Source of the DNA: Eledone cirrhosa
Taxonomy: Eukaryota
Assembly (NCBI GenBank): GCA_964016885.1
Contig: OZ024744.1
Location: forward strand, 111,228,001 to 111,292,000
Length of the DNA stretch: 64,000 bases
Reading direction: 5' to 3'
The notes under the pieces are model-generated. The model was not told where the DNA came from. It saw only the letters and a program-made list of their open reading frames with translations, and made no database searches. The position numbers and the translations under genes are program-made. This document shows positions 1,555 to 64,000 of this stretch, piece after piece (positions within the stretch are counted from its first letter, which is position 1; each line of letters opens with the position of its first letter).

Positions 1555-1737
1555 TTATAAATGCTAAGTTAAGTGATACCTTTGTAAAAGCAATATTACA
1601 GGTGGGAATGGTCTTTAAAGATATGTATCTGGCGTAGAATCAAGAAAAATGACTATTTTCCTGTTGATCTAAATTTTAAGTCCTTTTTTATAACTTATAT
1701 GGCCAGAATTTTTAGAAAGTTCTTAATGTGTGCAAAA

Positions 1738-1835
1738 CTATCAAGGATCGGTCTCCACAGCCACCTTCGTGCCCACGGCAGACGGGAACTAAAATAAAGA
1801 AGATGTCATCATCGTTTACTATGGACAACCAAGAT
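1738..1835 (+). mobile_element. 5'-truncated 3' end of an RTE-clade LINE
   Basis: 1741-1797 translates as SRIGLHSHLRAHGRRELK*, matching the C-terminal zinc-finger half (S-R-I-G-L-x-S-H-x-R-x-H) typical of RTE ORF2. It is followed by a short 3' UTR, GTCATCATCGTTTACTATGGACAACC, of RTE type (from recall). Confidence 0.7.
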
Positions 1836-1904
1836 GTGGATGTAAACTCAGATCTATATATAGTTAAAATATAGAGAAGAAAGATTTATTGATAAAGGAA
1901 ACAA

Positions 1905-3856
1905 ATCCATTTCCTTTGCATATCCAAAGGTAGGGTGACTATTCTACTACTTGATAGACTGCCAGTGACTAGTATGTGCCCTATTTTGCTGAATATTTTT
2001 AGCATTTTAGTCATATTCCTGATGATTCAGCTGCTTTCCCTGCTTTCATACCTTTAACCACACCTTAAACTGTCTAGTTGTGAACCAAAACAGTTGCTTA
2101 CCCATCGTTCTCCTTACTCAACAACTTCTTATGGTATAATTGCATGCCTGCTTCCAGTGTGACAGTGAAGTACAGAGTTATATCATATAAACTTTCCCTA
2201 ACAATGTCTTGTTTTGCAGTGATATACTGCTAATTAATACAGAACAACTCATATCTCTGACATTCGTGTCTCAGAACATTGTTGAAACTCTTACTTTCTG
2301 CTTCTCTCATTGCTATTCATAACTGATAAATACATGATATCCTTCTTTACTCTGCCACTTTCTTCCAATCTTTCTAAGCCTATCTCTTAACTTTTTATAG
2401 CTCTATCCACTGTACCATTCCATCTCCACATAATCTATCTGGTACTTTGCTACATCTATAAACTTGGTATGTGGTCTGCTGCAGGTTGTCTTGAAGAAAC
2501 TCCTTAGTATTTTCTACGTTATAATTCTCTATCGTCTCCACCTTTTCATCATACATGTTACATAGTAATTCTTTGAACGTACACCTCACTGAGATATCTT
2601 TCATCGTCCATGCATTTCTTCTCCAGATTGTCTAGTGTCTCAATGTCACTCACTAATCACTAGTCTATGTTGAATAGTACATTCAACCATCTGTCTATCA
2701 TATTTCCTGATCTACATGAAGTTTATTTGGCTTGTATATTTACTTGTTTGGTAGGTGACCAGGTGGTTAGCTGACTGGTACCGCTTCTGAAGCTGCTGCT
2801 CTACATCTCACAACTCAAAAAGATTTGATCATTCTTTATTCCTTGTACCATGTCTGTAATTTCCATGTACATTGGAGTAGCCAACCTGATGTTACCCAAA
2901 TATTATCCATTAAAGTCACCAGCTTTGGTAACACAGTTGTTCTTAGTTGTTGTGAAGGTAAGGTAGGTTACAAAAACAACTCAAAATATACCATCGGCTG
3001 GCAAGGTTGTCTGCAAGAGATCTTCACAGAAATTGTCCTTTTGTGCATCATTATGGTGCATCGGCAGACATTACTGTTACAGTTTTATTGCCAGTGACTA
3101 CTCCAAGCTCAATTCCTCAGTTTATTTCGCTGTTGACAATAGAGTTATTCCACCGGCAATTCCAGGACGATTAGTCTTCTGTGAGGAACGCTAAACTCTT
3201 TCGTTTCTTGGCTTTAGCTTGCGTTCATTTTGACCCTCCTCTCTCTCTCTCTCTCCCTCTCTCTCTCTCTCTCCCTCTCTCTCTCCCTCTTCTCTCTCTC
3301 TCTCCAGTGACTACTCCAAGCTCAATTCCTCAGTTTATTTCGCTGTTGACAATAGAGTTATTCCACCGGCAATTCCAGGACGATTAGTCTTCTGTGAGGA
3401 ACGCTAAACTCTTTCGTTTCTTGGCTTTAGCTTGCGTTCATTTTGACCCTCCTCTCTCTCTCTCTCTCTCCCTCTCTCTCTCCCTCTTCTCTCTCTCTCT
3501 CCAGTGACTACTCCAAGCTCAATTCCTCAGTTTATTTCGCTGTTGACAATAGAGTTATTCCACCGGCAATTCCAGGACGATTAGTCTTCTGTGAGGAACG
3601 CTAAACTCTTTCGTTTCTTGGCTTTAGCTTGCGTTCATTTTGACCCTCCTCTCTCTCTCTCTCTCCCTCTCTCTCTCCCTCTTCCCTCTCTCTCTCTCCA
3701 GTGACTACTCCAAGCTCAATTCCTCAGTTTATTTCGCTGTTGACAATAGAGTTATCCACCGACAATTCCAGGACGATTAGTCTTCTGTGAGGAATCTCAC
3801 CCCACTCCATCTCTTGTACACATCTACACACCTATACTCCTGGATTTCTACCAGCA
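1905..3856 (-). pseudogene. Decayed non-LTR retrotransposon (RTE-like LINE) ORF2: APE endonuclease, linker and start of RT domain, with many stops and frameshifts
   Basis: Minus-strand fragments occur in the correct order: LVEIQEYRCVDV / CVQEMEWG / RFLT (~3787-3855), GIAGGITLLSTAK*, VTVMSADAP, QKDNFCEDLLQTT (~3005-3085), AGDFNG (2906-2923), NHLVTYQTSKYTSQINF (~2720-2768), EAESKSFNNVLRHECQR (~2255-2305), KKLLSKEND, VKGMKAGKAAESSGI (~2015-2061) and KMLKIFSKIGHILV. ORF 2395-2604 in the track is a piece of it. Confidence 0.8.
3091..3794. repeat. Tandem array of a ~197-213 bp unit (3.5 copies): ~98 bp of LINE endonuclease DNA plus a spacer ending in (CT)n
   Basis: Units begin CCAGTGACTACTCCAAGCTC at 3091, 3304, 3501 and 3698. 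Length differences lie in the (CT)n tract. The LINE sequence resumes at 3795. Confidence 0.95.
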
Positions 3857-5630
3857 CCATTACCAACACTACTATCACCAACAACAACACAACCACACTA
3901 CCACCACCACCGACACCAACACTACTACAATACTACCACCAACACTACTACAATACTACCACCTACACTACTACACAACTACCACCAATACCAACACAAC
4001 CACACTACCACCGACACCAACACTACTACATTACTACCACCAACGCTACTACAATACTACCACCTACACTACTACACTACTATCACCAACACCAACACAA
4101 CCACACTACCACCACCACCGACAGCAACACTACTACATTACTACCACCAACACTACTACAATACTACCACCTACACTACTACACAACTACCACCAATACC
4201 AACACAACCACACTACCACCACCACCACCACCAACACTACTACATTACTACCACCAACACTACTACAATACTACCACCTACACTACAACACTGCTATCAC
4301 CAACACCAACACAACCACACTACCACCAACACCAACACTACTACACTACTACCACCAATACCAACACAACCACACTACCACCAACACCAACACTACTACA
4401 TTACTACCACCAACACGACTACAATACTGCCACCTACACTACTACTCTACTATCACCAACACCAACACAACCACACTACCACCAACACCAACACTACTAC
4501 ATTACTACCACCAACACTACTACAATACTGCCACCTACACTACTACACTACTTCCACCAATACCAACACAACCACACTACCACCACCACCAACACAAACA
4601 CTACTACATTACTACCACCAACACTACTACAATACTACCATCTACACTACTACACTACTATCACCAACACCAACACAACCACACTACCACCACCACCGAC
4701 ACCAACACTACTACATTACTACCACCAACACTACTACAATACAACCACCTACACTACTACACAACTACCACCAATACCAACACAAACCACACTACCACCA
4801 CCACCGACACCAACACTACTACATTACTACCACCAACGCTACTACAATACAACCACCTACACTACTACACTACTACCACCAATACCAACACAAACCACAC
4901 TACCACCACCACCGACACCAACACTACTACATTACTACCACCAACACTACTACAATACTACCACCTACACTACTACACAACTACAACCAATACCAACACA
5001 AACCACACTACCACCACCACCGACACCAACACTACTACATTACTACCACCAACGCTACTACAATACAACCAGCTACACTACTACACAACTACCACCAATA
5101 CCAACACAAACCACACTACCAACACCACCGACACCAACACTACTACATTACTACCACTAACACTACAAGAATACTACCACCTACACTACTACACAACTAT
5201 CTCCAATACCAACACAAACCACACTACCACCACCACCGACACCAACACTACTACATTACAACCACCAACACGACTACAATACTGCCACCTACACTACTAC
5301 ACAACTACCACCAATACCAACACAAACCACACTACCACCACCACCGACACCAACACTACTACATTACTACCACCAACGCTACTACAATACAACCACCTAC
5401 ACTACTACACAACTACCACCAATACCAACACAAACCACACTACCACCACCACCGACACCAACACTACTACATTACTACCACCAACGCTACTACAATACTA
5501 CCACCTACACTACTACACTACTACCACCAATACCAACACGACCACACTACCACCACAACGAACACCAACACTACTACATTACTGCCACCAACACTACTAC
5601 AATACTACCACCTACACTACACAAACACTA
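3857..5630. repeat. CAC/TAC-rich minisatellite domain with a 108-bp period
   Basis: The marker CCAACAC(A/G)A(A/C)C recurs at 4777, 4885, 4993, 5101, 5209, 5317, 5425 and 5533 (exact 108 spacing). Shorter, degenerate units lie in 3857-4770. Confidence 0.9.
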
Positions 5631-60223: not shown

Positions 60224-60245
60224 GTCAACTTTGCCTCTCATGTTT
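60224..60245 (-). pseudogene. Probable upstream continuation of the LINE endonuclease (N-M-R-G-K-V-D) on the far side of the satellite
   Basis: The minus strand AAC ATG AGA GGC AAA GTT GAC joins in register to CTG GTA GAA ATC at 3855-3844, rebuilding a TMxGKxxELxxxxERRxVD-like RTE endonuclease N-terminus. The match is short, so this is inference. Confidence 0.5.
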
Positions 60246-60655
60246 CTCTCTGACTTCTCTCTTGATTTTCACCTCCCCCTATATAATTATTGATATTTTT
60301 TTCTGCCTCTTTCTTTTCAGTCTGTCTCTTCTCTAACTGTGCTTAACACTATAACTAAATAATTACCTTACTCCCTCCCTCTTAAATCTCTCAATTTGTA
60401 TGATGAATTATTATTATTCATCTGCTGCTTTCGGTTGCCTCTCTCTTTTACCTCCTCCTTCCTTCTCACTCCCCTATTTCTCTGTATTTCTCTCTGTTTT
60501 TCTTTACATACATTTCTTCTTTTTCTCCGTCTTTATTTGTAACTGTGATTAACACTAAATATCTATAAACACTTCACTACCAAGCCAGCTTCCTACATTA
60601 ATGGCCGCTATATTTATGGTACGTCAAAATTATTTATAAAACTGGTTATATATTG

Positions 60656-60721
60656 TATTTTATCTGACGAAGGCATGCTATATTTTTAATATGGTATCCC
60701 CGAAATATGTATAATGAAATA
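60656..60721 (+). ncRNA. Type I hammerhead ribozyme motif (minimal, palindromic stem III)
   Basis: Stem I TATTTTAT(60656-63)/ATGAAATA(60714-21); core CTGACGA (60664-70); stem II GG-C-ATGCTATATT-ttt-AATATGGTAT-CC; GAAA (60702-05); self-complementary stem III ATATGTAT; predicted cleavage after AUA (60713). There is a distal stem I extension TATTTATAAAAC(60631-42)/GTTTTATAAATA(60728-39). Confidence 0.7.
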
Positions 60722-60853
60722 AATATGGTTTTATAAATATAGTTTCCATTTGTTTAATATCGTATATCTACTCCCAAAACTTGTCGAGTGCTTTATATCA
60801 GTTATAAAATATTTACTTGTTGTAACCCAACAATTTTAAATAAAACTTTTGCA

Positions 60854-60863
60854 TATATATATC

Positions 60864-60895
<32 letters not shown>

Positions 60896-60897
60896 TA
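60854..60897. repeat. (TA)n microsatellite
   Basis: Direct reading. Confidence 0.95.
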
Positions 60898-61241
60898 TCC
60901 CGGATTCAATCGGGGGTAACCACAGTAAGTAAGGTATTCAATACAAAGCAGAGTATAAATATTTAATATAGAAAAGCTTCTACAGTACTAGAACTGTTTC
61001 ATTCGTGAGAAATCATCAGGAAGCTGACTGTCCAAGTAAATATGGTGGTATTTATATCTTTTCTGGTGGTAGGAGAGGGTCGGGATTGGGATGGGTTGAG
61101 GTCATTGATTGATGGGTTTAAAGAAAAGGGAATTCTTTAAAAGCTATAATTAGAGTAACAAAGGCAGAAAGGGGTTCCACTCCTTATTTTTAAGGTTCTC
61201 ATAAGCTAACAATGACTATTATTCAGGTGTCTACAAGCACA
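60898..61241 (-). mobile_element. 3' remnant of a Penelope-like retroelement (ORF end, 3' UTR/pLTR with hammerhead)
   Basis: The minus strand encodes ACRHLN (CRH at 61235-61227), reminiscent of the CRHxN C-terminus of Penelope GIY-YIG ORFs. A UTR and a hammerhead (61025-60975) follow, and the element terminates at (TA)n. Confidence 0.55.
60975..61025 (-). ncRNA. Type I hammerhead ribozyme motif (complete three-stem form)
   Basis: Minus strand: AGCTTC-CTGATGA-tTTCtcacGAAt-GAAA-CAGTtctagtACTG-TA^GAAGCT. Stem I is a perfect 6 bp, all core nucleotides are canonical, stem III is 4 bp plus the A-U pair, and the cleavage triplet is GUA. Confidence 0.85.
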
Positions 61242-61312
61242 TTCACACACACACACACATATATATAAAGACCCTACTCCCACACACTCGCAAAAACAAA
61301 CTCTCTTATACC

Positions 61313-61432
61313 CATATATATATATATACATGTATATATATACATATACAGTATATATGTATACATGTATATATATACATATATATATATACATATATAT
61401 ATACATATATATATATACATATATATATATAC

Positions 61433-61494
<62 letters not shown>

Positions 61495-61572
61495 ATATAT
61501 ACATATATATATACATGCATATATATATACATATATATATACATATATATACATATATATATATATACATAT

Positions 61573-61630
<58 letters not shown>

Positions 61631-61695
61631 ATATATATACATATATATATTCATATATATATATACATATATATTTATATATATATACATATGTA
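61313..61695. repeat. Compound (TA)n/(TATACA)n microsatellite
   Basis: Direct reading; it generates the YI-rich spurious ORFs. Confidence 0.95.
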
Positions 61696-61784
61696 TGAAT
61701 GAAGTAATTCCGTCGGAAAAGTCCAGGAAAAAAGAGTGCTCTATGTAAGCAACAGAGCTTAATTATTATTATGTAATAAACAAC

Positions 61785-61888
61785 AATGTTCGGTAAACCC
61801 ATATGTACATATATATGTGTGTGCATGTATGTATATATATACATACATGCACACACATGTATATGTACATATGGGTTTACCGAACATT
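61785..61888. repeat. 104-bp loopless palindrome (52-bp arms, one mismatch)
   Basis: AATGTTCGGTAAACCCATATGTACATAT...GTATAT|ATATAC...ATATGTACATATGGGTTTACCGAACATT; the only mismatch is 61814/61859. Confidence 0.95.
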
Positions 61889-61892
61889 TATT

Positions 61893-62083
61893 ATAATTGT
61901 TTCTACTTTAGGCACAAGGCCAGCAATCACCCAGTGCATTACTGGTACTTTATTTTATCGACCCCGTAAGGATGAAAGGCAAAGTTAACCTCGGCGGAAT
62001 TTGAACTCAGATTGGAAAGGGCCGTAACTCTATGCATCAAAGCATGGCGTCCGAACCTCTACCGATACTGCCAATCCACCGCC
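61893..62083 (-). mobile_element. tRNA-derived SINE (same family as left-flank copies), full length
   Basis: The reverse complement contains the A box TGGCAGTATCGG, the B box GAGTTCAAATTCC, the central domain and the tail AAAGTAGAAACAATTATAATAA. Confidence 0.9.
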
Positions 62084-62165
62084 CTTATAGGTTCGGTTTG
62101 TTTGTTTGTAAACAAACAAACAGCCCGGATTACGCCGTACATATACATATATATATATATATATT

Positions 62166-62540
62166 TATTATAAAAAATAAACAAAGAAGCCTTCAATACA
62201 TCAAAAGTCTTTATTAGCCGACAGTGTTTCGTCCCATTAATAGGGACTCATCAGAGCAAGTAAAGAGACAAGAAGTATTAACGGCCAGAACAATCCAAAA
62301 CTCAGAAGAACAGGGAATTTATATCTATGAAAACTTAGGAAAGACATCATGGAAAGACATGCTAAAGCTAAAAGTGTGCATTTGAAAATATAGACTATAG
62401 GGCAAGAGAGCGAGTAATATGTCAAACCCACGTTGAAAGTACAGTATAAGACAAATACATGAAACACAACATGGTAATACAATGTGAGAATTATAATATG
62501 ATATAGAATACAATATAATGGATAATAAGAAATAAAAAGC
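62166..62540 (-). mobile_element. Probable Penelope-like pLTR/3' UTR remnant carrying the 62214-62259 hammerhead
   Basis: This is a T-rich minus-strand segment between (TA)n tracts, with a hammerhead followed by AATAAA near its 3' end. Boundaries are approximate. Confidence 0.45.
62214..62259 (-). ncRNA. Type I minimal hammerhead ribozyme motif
   Basis: Minus strand: TTGCT-CTGATGA-GTCCCtattaatGGGAC-GAAA-CACTG-TC^GGCTAATAAA. It has a canonical core, a perfect 5-bp stem II with G10.1-C11.1, a tiny near-palindromic stem III (ACA-C-TGT), a GUC triplet, a short stem I (GCT/GGC) and AATAAA just downstream. Confidence 0.8.
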
Positions 62541-62906
62541 CTAATATATATATATATATAAATCCATATATATACACATTTACACAAACACATACTAACA
62601 CTTATTTAAATATTTAAATATAAATATACTCGTTATAATGTAATAATCATTATAATAGAATAATCACCCTGACGGTGTGCATAAACTATACCAAAAACAA
62701 TGGAATAATATACGGACATTAAAAAATATATAAAACTACATCATACGTATCATTTAAGGTCAACAAATTGTATATAAAGTTTTACACAGGGTAAGAAAAA
62801 ATATCAAATAAAAATAAAGTATGGTGAAAAAATATATATAAATATATATAATATTGACAATAAATATACAGAGGTATAGGCAGTTCAAATTCATAAAATA
62901 TTACAA

Positions 62907-62929
62907 TATATATATATATATATATATTT

Positions 62930-62993
<64 letters not shown>

Positions 62994-63005
62994 ATATATA
63001 TATAT
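62907..63005. repeat. (TA)n microsatellite
   Basis: Direct reading. Confidence 0.95.
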
Positions 63006-63677
63006 TGTTATATTTGGGGAGGGTCATATTTGCGTAATATTGCCAGAATTAATAACAGAACACACTCACTGTTTGGTTGGTTTTCGCTTCTCGCTGTCTT
63101 TTATATATATATATCTGCGATCTAACTTACTCGGTCCTCAATGTTGCCATTGACTGACCGGCGGTCAAAAATAATACAGATACAATATAGACAAACACAT
63201 ATATATATAGTTTACATAATTTACATAAATCTTTCGTTGCACATCTGCAAAATCGTCAGTGGTGTTATATTCATTGTTCCTCCTGTTGTGTTGTATGTCT
63301 ACGCCATTTTTTTGTTCAGTCTGTCTATATATTTATTTATTTATTTGCTTGTTTGTTTATCTTATTTTATTTTGTCTTCTTTGCGCATGCGTTTGCGTGT
63401 GTGTATAGTGTTATGTGTGATGTGTGACTAGTGTGTATAGTGTTGTGTCTGCTGGGTGACTAGTGTGTGTTTATGTGCTTGTGTATGTATTTATTTATCT
63501 TATTTTATTTTTGACCGCCGGTCAGTCAATGGCAACATTGAGGACCGAGTAAGTTAGATCGCAGATATATATATATAAAAGACAGCGAGAAGCGAAAACC
63601 AACCAAACAGTGAGTGTGTTCTGTTATTAATTCTGGCAATATTACGCAAATATGACCCTCCCCAAATATAACAATAT
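63002..63677. mobile_element. Element with perfect 173-bp inverted terminal arms (63002-63174 / 63505-63677) and a 330-bp spacer; Penelope-like inverted pLTR structure or MITE
   Basis: The arms are exact reverse complements, including an internal (AT)6 run. The left arm abuts (TA)n. The spacer contains a hammerhead core on the minus strand. Confidence 0.75.
63224..63262 (-). ncRNA. Degenerate hammerhead-like motif
   Basis: Minus strand: CCA-CTGACGA-ttTTGCAgatgTGCAAc-GAAA-GATT-TA^TG. The core and stem II are intact and stem III (AGATTT) is self-complementary with G-U pairs, but stem I has only 2 bp. Confidence 0.45.
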
Positions 63678-63732
63678 CTGTTTCGACACACGATTTCATA
63701 TAAAAAACCTCGCAAAACTAATTCATCGCCGC

Positions 63733-63780
63733 TATATATATATATATATATGGATATATATATATATGAATATATATATG

Positions 63781-63811
<31 letters not shown>

Positions 63812-63874
63812 GTAAATATATATATGTATATATATATATGTAAATATATATATATATATATACATGTATATATG

Positions 63875-63938
<64 letters not shown>
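63733..63938. repeat. Imperfect (TA)n microsatellite
   Basis: Direct reading. Confidence 0.95.
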
Positions 63939-63939
<1 letters not shown>

Positions 63940-63940
<1 letters not shown>

Positions 63941-64000
63941 AAGTACCAGTAATGCACTGGGTGATTGCTGGCCTTGTGCCTAAAGTAGAAACAATTATAA
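63940..64000 (+). mobile_element. 5'-truncated SINE (3' part only)
   Basis: AAAGTACCAGTAATGCACTGGGTGATTGCTGGCCTTGTGCCTAAAGTAGAAACAATTATAA is the exact reverse complement of 61891-61951. Confidence 0.85.

Follow-up and report, generated by a model that had tools for sequence, protein, structure and literature searches.

The window analyzed here is a stretch of 64,000 nucleotides from the genome of Eledone cirrhosa (contig OZ024744.1, positions 111,228,001 to 111,292,000 of the forward strand; coordinates below count from its first letter), in which a 56 kb satellite array is followed by a right flank carrying four hammerhead ribozyme motifs. The right flank (60224-64000, both strands) contains exactly four CUGANGA words, starting at 60664 (+), 61019 (-), 62254 (-) and 63259 (-), and each of these is followed by a hairpin and GAAA, while none of the five CUGANGA words of the left flank has such a continuation. 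When the right flank was subjected to 1000 dinucleotide shuffles with its microsatellites removed, the maximum was two cores (reached in 2/1000) against four observed, and one full type I fold (reached in 5/1000) against three observed; since the four cores and the three complete folds exceed the shuffle maxima, the motifs are not due to chance. A previous reading of this DNA from its letters alone (the sequence-only reading) had described four CUGAYGA...GAAA cores with stem II hairpins at these places, with unrelated stems and each near a (TA)n tract; all of this was borne out, the distance from each motif to a run of (TA)5 or longer being 17-150 nt.

All four motifs show the CUGANGA, GAAA and UH elements and the open stem I of type I hammerheads, with a stem I of 8, 6, 3-4 and 2 bp in motifs 1 to 4, and cleavage is predicted after 60713 (UA), 60981 (UA), 62220 (UC) and 63226 (UA), respectively. 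Hammerhead 1 (60656..60721, + strand) has an 8-bp stem I, a long stem II and a 2-bp helix III within a self-complementary 8-mer; its window copy has an A10.1.C11.1 mismatch where the commonest family form has A-U, the C at 11.1 being shared by 4 other rows of the 23 aligned, and an alternative register with an unpaired A and a G-C closing pair is possible. Hammerhead 2 (60975..61025, - strand) combines a 6-bp stem I, a 3-bp stem II flanked by U.U and a helix III with a palindromic loop, which measures 5 bp in the window copy as against 4 bp in the family; all 13 pairs are kept. Hammerhead 3 (62215..62259, - strand) has a stem I of 3-4 bp, a 5-bp stem II closed by G-C, a 2-bp helix III and a GUC site, and hammerhead 4 (63224..63261, - strand) is a minimal type I motif with a 2-bp stem I, an unpaired U before stem II and a self-complementary 6-nt helix III. 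The last had been called degenerate, a fair description in that it carries one substitution with respect to the commonest family form, U for G10.1 at 63251 (U.C), unique among 12 aligned rows, together with a 2-bp stem I that is common to its family. The 10.1-11.1 closing pair of the window copies is G-C in motif 3, U.U in motif 2, A.C in motif 1 and U.C in motif 4. In motifs 1, 3 and 4 helix III has 2 bp each and is self-complementary at 8/8, 6/7 and 6/6 positions, which looks like a dimer design that would likely need an identical partner. Folding z-scores were weak (-0.2, 0.2, -2.2 and 0.0) and are uninformative for such short AT-rich junctions; the minimum-energy fold of motif 2 shows stems I and III, and stem II is absent from its centroid fold.

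Conservation of the stems was assessed in gap-poor alignments of distinct natural copies. For motif 1 the alignment has 23 rows including the window, out of 27 distinct copies, the four left out being one unrelated copy and three that differed in family or in the register of stem II; the motif 4 alignment was extended by three rows from a related subfamily, on which its stem II covariation depends. Stem cells were paired in 97% (motif 1), 94% (motif 2), 98% (motif 3) and 90% (motif 4) of cases, with slid controls at 55% or less. Compensatory changes were found in 10 cells of 2 pairs in motif 2 and in 8 cells of 3 pairs in motif 4, values reached by 0/500 shuffles in both cases. Judged from these alignments, the stems covary between subfamilies, most clearly in motifs 2 and 4.

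Each hammerhead lies in a truncated copy of a Penelope-like element (PLE), and these copies have been named H1 to H4. H1 (60228..60852, + strand) begins 5 nt past the end of the satellite and consists of a 5'-truncated 3' untranslated region (UTR) and pseudo-long terminal repeat (pLTR) with a tail of ~80 nt (60771-60852), of a family with Hydra-clade motifs; it terminates in a (TA)n tract (60853..60898) that is common to H1 and H2, the two converging on it tail to tail. H2 (60899..61330, - strand), from a second family with Hydra-clade motifs, is a 5'-truncated pLTR with a tail of ~65 nt (~60965-60899). H3 (62167..62906, - strand) is a 5'-truncated 3' UTR and pLTR from a third such family, has no clear tail and ends at (TA)n 62148-62163, while a further (TA)n tract (62906..63005) separates the 5' break of H3 from the 3' end of H4. 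H4 (63006..63510, - strand) is the 3' UTR and pLTR, without a tail, of a young Neptune-like PLE, and it abuts an inverted, further truncated partner without a hammerhead (63511..63732, + strand), whose tail measures 55 nt (63678-63732) and is followed by a terminal (TA)n at 63733-63937. A 198-bp inverted repeat at 63002-63677 might be read as a miniature inverted-repeat transposable element, which was ruled out, as it represents the head-to-head junction of the two truncated H4 copies. The tail of the inverted partner contains the first 27 codons of the element open reading frame (ORF; ATG at 63652), and these are the only element ORF codons in the window, so that the remnants are indeed invisible to ORF annotation, as the sequence-only reading had said. 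The nearest other copies are 96.5% (H1), 99.4% (H2), 96.0% (H3) and 99.8% (H4) identical, and given this spread the insertions are likely to be of different ages.

In the genome (3.0 Gb, 1796 contigs) all four contexts are dispersed repeats, with exact pattern matches numbering 2,419 for motif 1 (core and stem II only), 18,540 for motif 2, 228 for motif 3 and 9,886 for motif 4, against 0 for the reversed-pattern controls. Three unlabelled contig runs of one sample, compared with 60228-61310 only, confirmed the high copy number and have no bearing on the locus or on RNA; against these runs, 60679 and 60986 differ from most copies. Many family copies are arranged as head-to-head pairs with coding frames between or beside them. 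The full H1 element was found at locus L111 (ORF 2552-4801, 750 aa), and inverted H1 partners elsewhere end at the position corresponding to 60770. Close H2 copies (L023, L028, L152, L155; 85-91%) extend into the start of the ORF, and a sister subfamily (L145, L146, L148, L150, L154; pLTR 80-82% alike) has an open 758-codon frame, mostly between two hammerhead-bearing pLTRs. H3 is linked to an ORF of 768 codons (L071:2089-4392), and H4 to two frames in L075, 3827-7297 (+) and 1314-3941 (-), of 1157 and 876 codons, respectively. The linked frames of L111, L145, L071 and L075 carry, by motifs, a YxDD reverse transcriptase (RT) motif and a C-terminal YIG/YVG nuclease motif, and the expectation that multicopy contexts would lead to RT and GIY-YIG frames thus held for all four. 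A direct pLTR-ORF-pLTR arrangement is seen in L145, L146, L148 and L154, and inverted pairs in L071, L075, L079, L111 and at 63006-63732 of the window. Tails and inverted truncated partners are described as PLE signatures in the available parts of two reports (PMC8557442; PMC11167929), and the tails found here, at 55-80 nt, are longer than the 30-40 bp cited in the literature. The H1-H3 frames (41-43% identity to the H1 frame) share DKT, a CxCx5C-type linker (YxCx5C in H1), the absence of CCHH, and CxxC and CxH around the catalytic E/N, with RWR in H1, H2 and the H3 copy L032, and their insertions end in (TA)n; H4 has CX4CxxC at residue 743 and, in the alignment, two Cys before YIG and two His after it. 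By these motifs H1-H3 would belong to the Hydra clade and H4 appears to be Neptune-like, with Nematis as a formal possibility.

We consider it very probable that the four motifs are type I hammerheads, each at the 3' end of a 5'-truncated copy from a different high-copy PLE family, three of the families having Hydra motifs and one being Neptune-like. The copies are likely to have piled up here through the insertion of such elements at (TA)n tracts, and the motifs are likely passive at this site. Several observations speak against this interpretation or temper it. The sequence-only reading had looked to Rfam for confirmation, and this was not forthcoming: a search of the window gave no hammerhead family among 45 matches at E<=1 (sub-threshold microRNA and snoRNA matches to the TA palindromes were rejected as compositional). 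Pfam, run on five element frames, gave a sub-threshold RVT_1 match in 1/5 and no GIY-YIG model, so the nuclease call rests on motifs, as does the assignment of H1-H4 to Hydra and Neptune. The intact frame linked to H2 comes from the sister subfamily. The covariation is weak in motif 1, where 1 cell was counted and 175/500 shuffles gave as many, and in motif 3, with 2 cells and 20/500 such shuffles; the cells counted throughout come from related copies and are not independent events. Finally, four families within 2.7 kb lie in the upper tail of the distribution, being found in 1/40 background stretches (see below) with one doubtful core included.

Comparison with known systems places all four elements within described groups. 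In the available part of the description of the Hydra clade, a group of C-terminal EN+ PLEs (PMC8557442) that includes Hydra-1_Obim, nearly all families insert into (TA)n, and the elements resemble H1-H3 in having a single RT-endonuclease frame with DKT, no CCHH, a CxCx5C linker, CxxC and CxH near the end, and a canonical hammerhead near the 3' end, mostly ~85-210 nt from it (File S2). The hammerheads listed there also resemble motif 2, with a U-flanked short stem II and a 4-bp helix III; U.U at 10.1-11.1 is common in that list and is hence not new in motif 2, and the Hydra-1_oBim hammerhead of the list differs from each of motifs 1-3, which indicates that these belong to other families. The elements differ from that description in having RWR, not RWK, in the Tyr that replaces the first linker Cys of H1, in a length above the <3 kb described (the 3' UTR of the sisters of H2 is a TA-rich 1.6-2.5 kb), and in copy numbers that reach thousands or tens of thousands. 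H4 shares with the Neptune clade the C-terminal GIY-YIG, the CX4CxxC linker, two Cys between the GIY-like and YIG motifs, a minimal hammerhead in the pLTR, a tail and an inverted partner, and differs from it by DKS instead of DKG and by an Asn-rich N-terminal region. The minimal PLE hammerheads, as far as the accessible portion of PMC4209133 describes them, are likewise of type I with a short palindromic helix III, mostly alone in truncated copies or in pairs on opposite strands, and resemble the motif 4 family in the unpaired base before stem II and G10.1-C11.1; motif 2 departs from them by its helix III of 4-5 bp and its U.U at 10.1-11.1, and motif 1 by a 12-pair stem II closed by A-U. The hammerheads of the Hydra clade and its (TA)n preference have thus already been published, and H1-H4 are new members, but both their PLE clades and their hammerhead types are known.

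The following mechanism draws on the literature and on the anatomy of the copies. The element protein would nick AT-rich DNA, and reverse transcription would be primed either slightly into the ORF or just after the pLTR, giving copies with or without a tail. Copying would mostly stop early, leaving the 3' UTR and the pLTR with its hammerhead, sometimes together with an inverted partner. With each insertion ending in (TA)n and one family bringing in more of it, later insertions would land beside earlier ones. In a full element the two pLTR hammerheads would cleave the precursor RNA into unit-length molecules, acting as a dimer, with the assistance of the element protein, or both, while lone copies such as those in the window would have no identical partner in cis.

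To estimate the load of hammerheads in the genome, 10-kb stretches were sampled at even spacing, 40 in all, of which the four largest contigs supplied 30 and six further contigs the remaining 10. These contained 76 cores and 41 full type I folds, compared with 22.3 and 1.7 in shuffles, and 33/41 full type I hammerheads lay within 300 nt of (TA)5, compared with 35.5% of 1000 random positions. The estimated load is ~290,000 motifs (bootstrap 170,000-440,000), or about one per 10 kb; a looser count of accepted motifs (62/76 cores, ~450,000) was set aside, since chance words within other repeats probably account for some of the repeated cores. Across all loci examined, 401 hammerhead-like cores fell into 55 clusters, 22 of which were seen in at least two loci, and several of the 55 represent hammerhead families absent from the window. 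Published counts, in the parts of the sources available, are 126,247 for axolotl, >6,000 for coral and ~5,000 for mussel (PMC7229834), and 4,000 for coelacanth and 9,000 for Xenopus (PMC4209133), the last two being far exceeded by the present estimate; the descriptors differ between these counts and ours, so the ranking is not like for like. Literature searches found no report of a load of ~290,000 motifs, and those on octopus or cephalopod hammerheads yielded a single relevant paper (Craig et al. 2021, PMC8557442). In an octopus repeat annotation from 2026 (PMC13282606), 31 Penelope-like families are given as recently active, and its main text says nothing of ribozymes. The genome thus appears to hold a very large and sequence-diverse set of natural hammerheads that is missed by Rfam.

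These figures bear on the proposal of the sequence-only reading that the site is a special insertion hotspot. In its strongest form, the satellite edge would attract insertions beyond ordinary (TA)n targeting; in its favor are the six hammerhead-family remnants (H1-H4 and the two described below) and a repeat similar to a short interspersed nuclear element (SINE) within 3.5 kb, whose ages differ (96-99.8% identity to the nearest copies), and the uneven density of the motifs, 17/40 background stretches being without an accepted motif. We regard such a hotspot as unlikely, given that at least three families within 2.7 kb were also found in 3/40 background stretches and in two of the ten that come next on the right-hand side, 30-50 kb from the satellite, that 4/120 background 2.7-kb bins have at least four loose cores, and that the left flank of the satellite is without any core. 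Although the cluster falls in the upper tail, clusters like it would be expected thousands of times over in the genome, and the locus is ordinary transposon debris for which no special explanation is needed. A broader account, which we hold to be rather improbable, would have ~300,000 hammerheads from more than a dozen families, a load above any printed count found, in pile-ups that feed themselves through the kilobase (TA)n 3' UTR of an abundant Hydra-clade family, a landing pad for itself and others, whose hammerhead, stable in helix III and present in >18,000 exact-pattern copies, would work as a monomer and cut host transcripts.

The last element of that account can also be put more narrowly, namely that at least one motif, most plausibly motif 2, cuts host read-through or intronic RNA here with a regulatory effect. 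Motif 2 has all its 13 pairs and a 5-bp helix III, with stems I and III in its minimum-energy fold, and, according to PMC4209133, PLE hammerheads of fungi in which helix III is large can be cleaved as monomers; set against this are its stem II, which has 3 bp with U.U and is lost from the centroid fold, and the 10.1-11.1 mismatch of motifs 1 and 4. As given in the accessible portions of the sources, metazoan PLE hammerheads are inactive as monomers and weak as dimers (PMC4209133; review PMC6765202), and that of an Anolis PLE needed the element protein, was dispensable for insertion in vitro, and gave no RNA-seq reads ending at its site (PMC11167929). No host gene was identified, the neighbors seen being satellites and other retroelements, and a regulatory role of this kind seems to us very unlikely. 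The sequence-only reading had held that any read-through transcript on either strand could be self-cleaved here, which is not supported. Cleavage of read-through RNA would be unlikely, perhaps with the exception of motif 2, because each family has one copy at the site and the helix III segments differ. Hardly credible, finally, is the view that the motifs belong to non-autonomous tandem retrozymes making small circular RNAs. Non-LTR retrozymes are, in the available parts of two sources (PMC7229834; Li et al. bioRxiv 10.64898/2026.07.22.740005), abundant non-coding repeats with type I hammerheads related to PLE pLTRs; type I hammerheads in short non-coding repeats are also what is seen here, and a tandem hammerhead array with a 311-bp period exists elsewhere in the genome (L179). 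The window, in contrast, has no head-to-tail non-coding units of 170-400 nt that each carry a hammerhead, nor any other tandem unit containing one, but truncated copies of coding elements, and all four families continue into protein-coding elements with variable 5' truncation or tails. Of the Penelope-like or retrozyme origin that had been proposed, the part concerning several PLE families at (TA)n tracts has stood, and the retrozymes have not.

To return to insertion of PLEs at (TA)n tracts, part of the TA sequence at such sites may come with the elements. Four full-length sisters of H2, of Hydra type and with open frames (L145:3600-6050; L146, L148, L154), have a 3' UTR made up of a 1.6-2.5 kb TA/TG tract, which aligns between copies and has the same strand polarity as the tract in the window, only stronger. 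This suggests that part of the TA target sequence would travel with the element and is not only pre-existing target, and part of the TA sequence in the window may accordingly be element-borne rather than target. Literature searches found no PLE family carrying a TA tract of 1.6-2.5 kb in its own 3' UTR. Element-borne tracts of this kind would offer PLEs a route to create their own targets and to enlarge the microsatellite load of the genome, and young elements from two PLE clades, with 99.8% identical copies and open frames, provide material for the question of what PLE hammerheads do. A reading of H2 as a non-autonomous element of defined length, prompted by breaks at ~61300-61330 or in the TA tract beyond at 13/14 other loci, was not adopted and seems the less likely one, because the full-length sisters have an internal TA tract at the place of the break. 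The closest H2 copy (99.4%) is on the same contig at 112.64 Mb, 1.35 Mb away, where it also sits between copies of the H1 family and of the palindromic sixth family.

The interrupted (TA)n tract next to H2 (61314..61696) may be a remnant of the TA-rich 3' UTR of H2, the target of the remnant that follows, or both. That remnant (61690..61785, - strand) preserves the 3' end of a fifth family with a hammerhead; its truncation point lies downstream of the hammerhead, and it has no ORF link here. It is followed by the palindromic 3' end of a sixth hammerhead-bearing family (61785..62141, - strand), with a repeat inside it (~61890-62090) which we take to be SINE-like. The 357 bp of 61785-62141 recur directly at 64003-64363 (353/357 identical, 98.9%), flanking the H3-H4 block, and the hammerhead core of the sixth family lies after this second copy, beyond the window, at 64447; the direct duplication could have arisen by local tandem duplication or represent a target-site duplication of great length. 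Frames in neighboring or related stretches (L081, L083, L196, L203) presumably belong to other kinds of non-LTR retrotransposon, which they resemble.

The satellite itself (3848-60223) is an array of a 12-bp C/A-rich unit extending over 56 kb, with an extreme GC skew. Each of its three + strand frames is interrupted by 33-54 stops, and the open stretches, which reach 6,647 codons, are Thr/Asn-rich or Leu/Pro/Thr-rich with no frame clearly favored. An origin of the satellite from H1 was ruled out, other H1 copies carrying an unrelated 3' UTR upstream of the position of 60228. To its left, tandem arrays with periods of 113, 193 and 197 bp occupy 1-927, 1159-1557 and 3091-3794, the first two being made of pieces of the SINE-like repeat that is also present at 61890-62090 and 63939-64000. 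Between the arrays, 1600-3090 (- strand) is a non-repetitive stretch with CUGANGA words lacking GAAA. A second satellite with a 44-bp period, of at least 91 kb (~111.128-111.219 Mb), stops ~9 kb to the left of the window. The 311-bp-period array of L179 (8630-9750, at 280.0 Mb of another contig) is accompanied by an inverted copy, and its family, seen in four loci, is a candidate non-LTR retrozyme.

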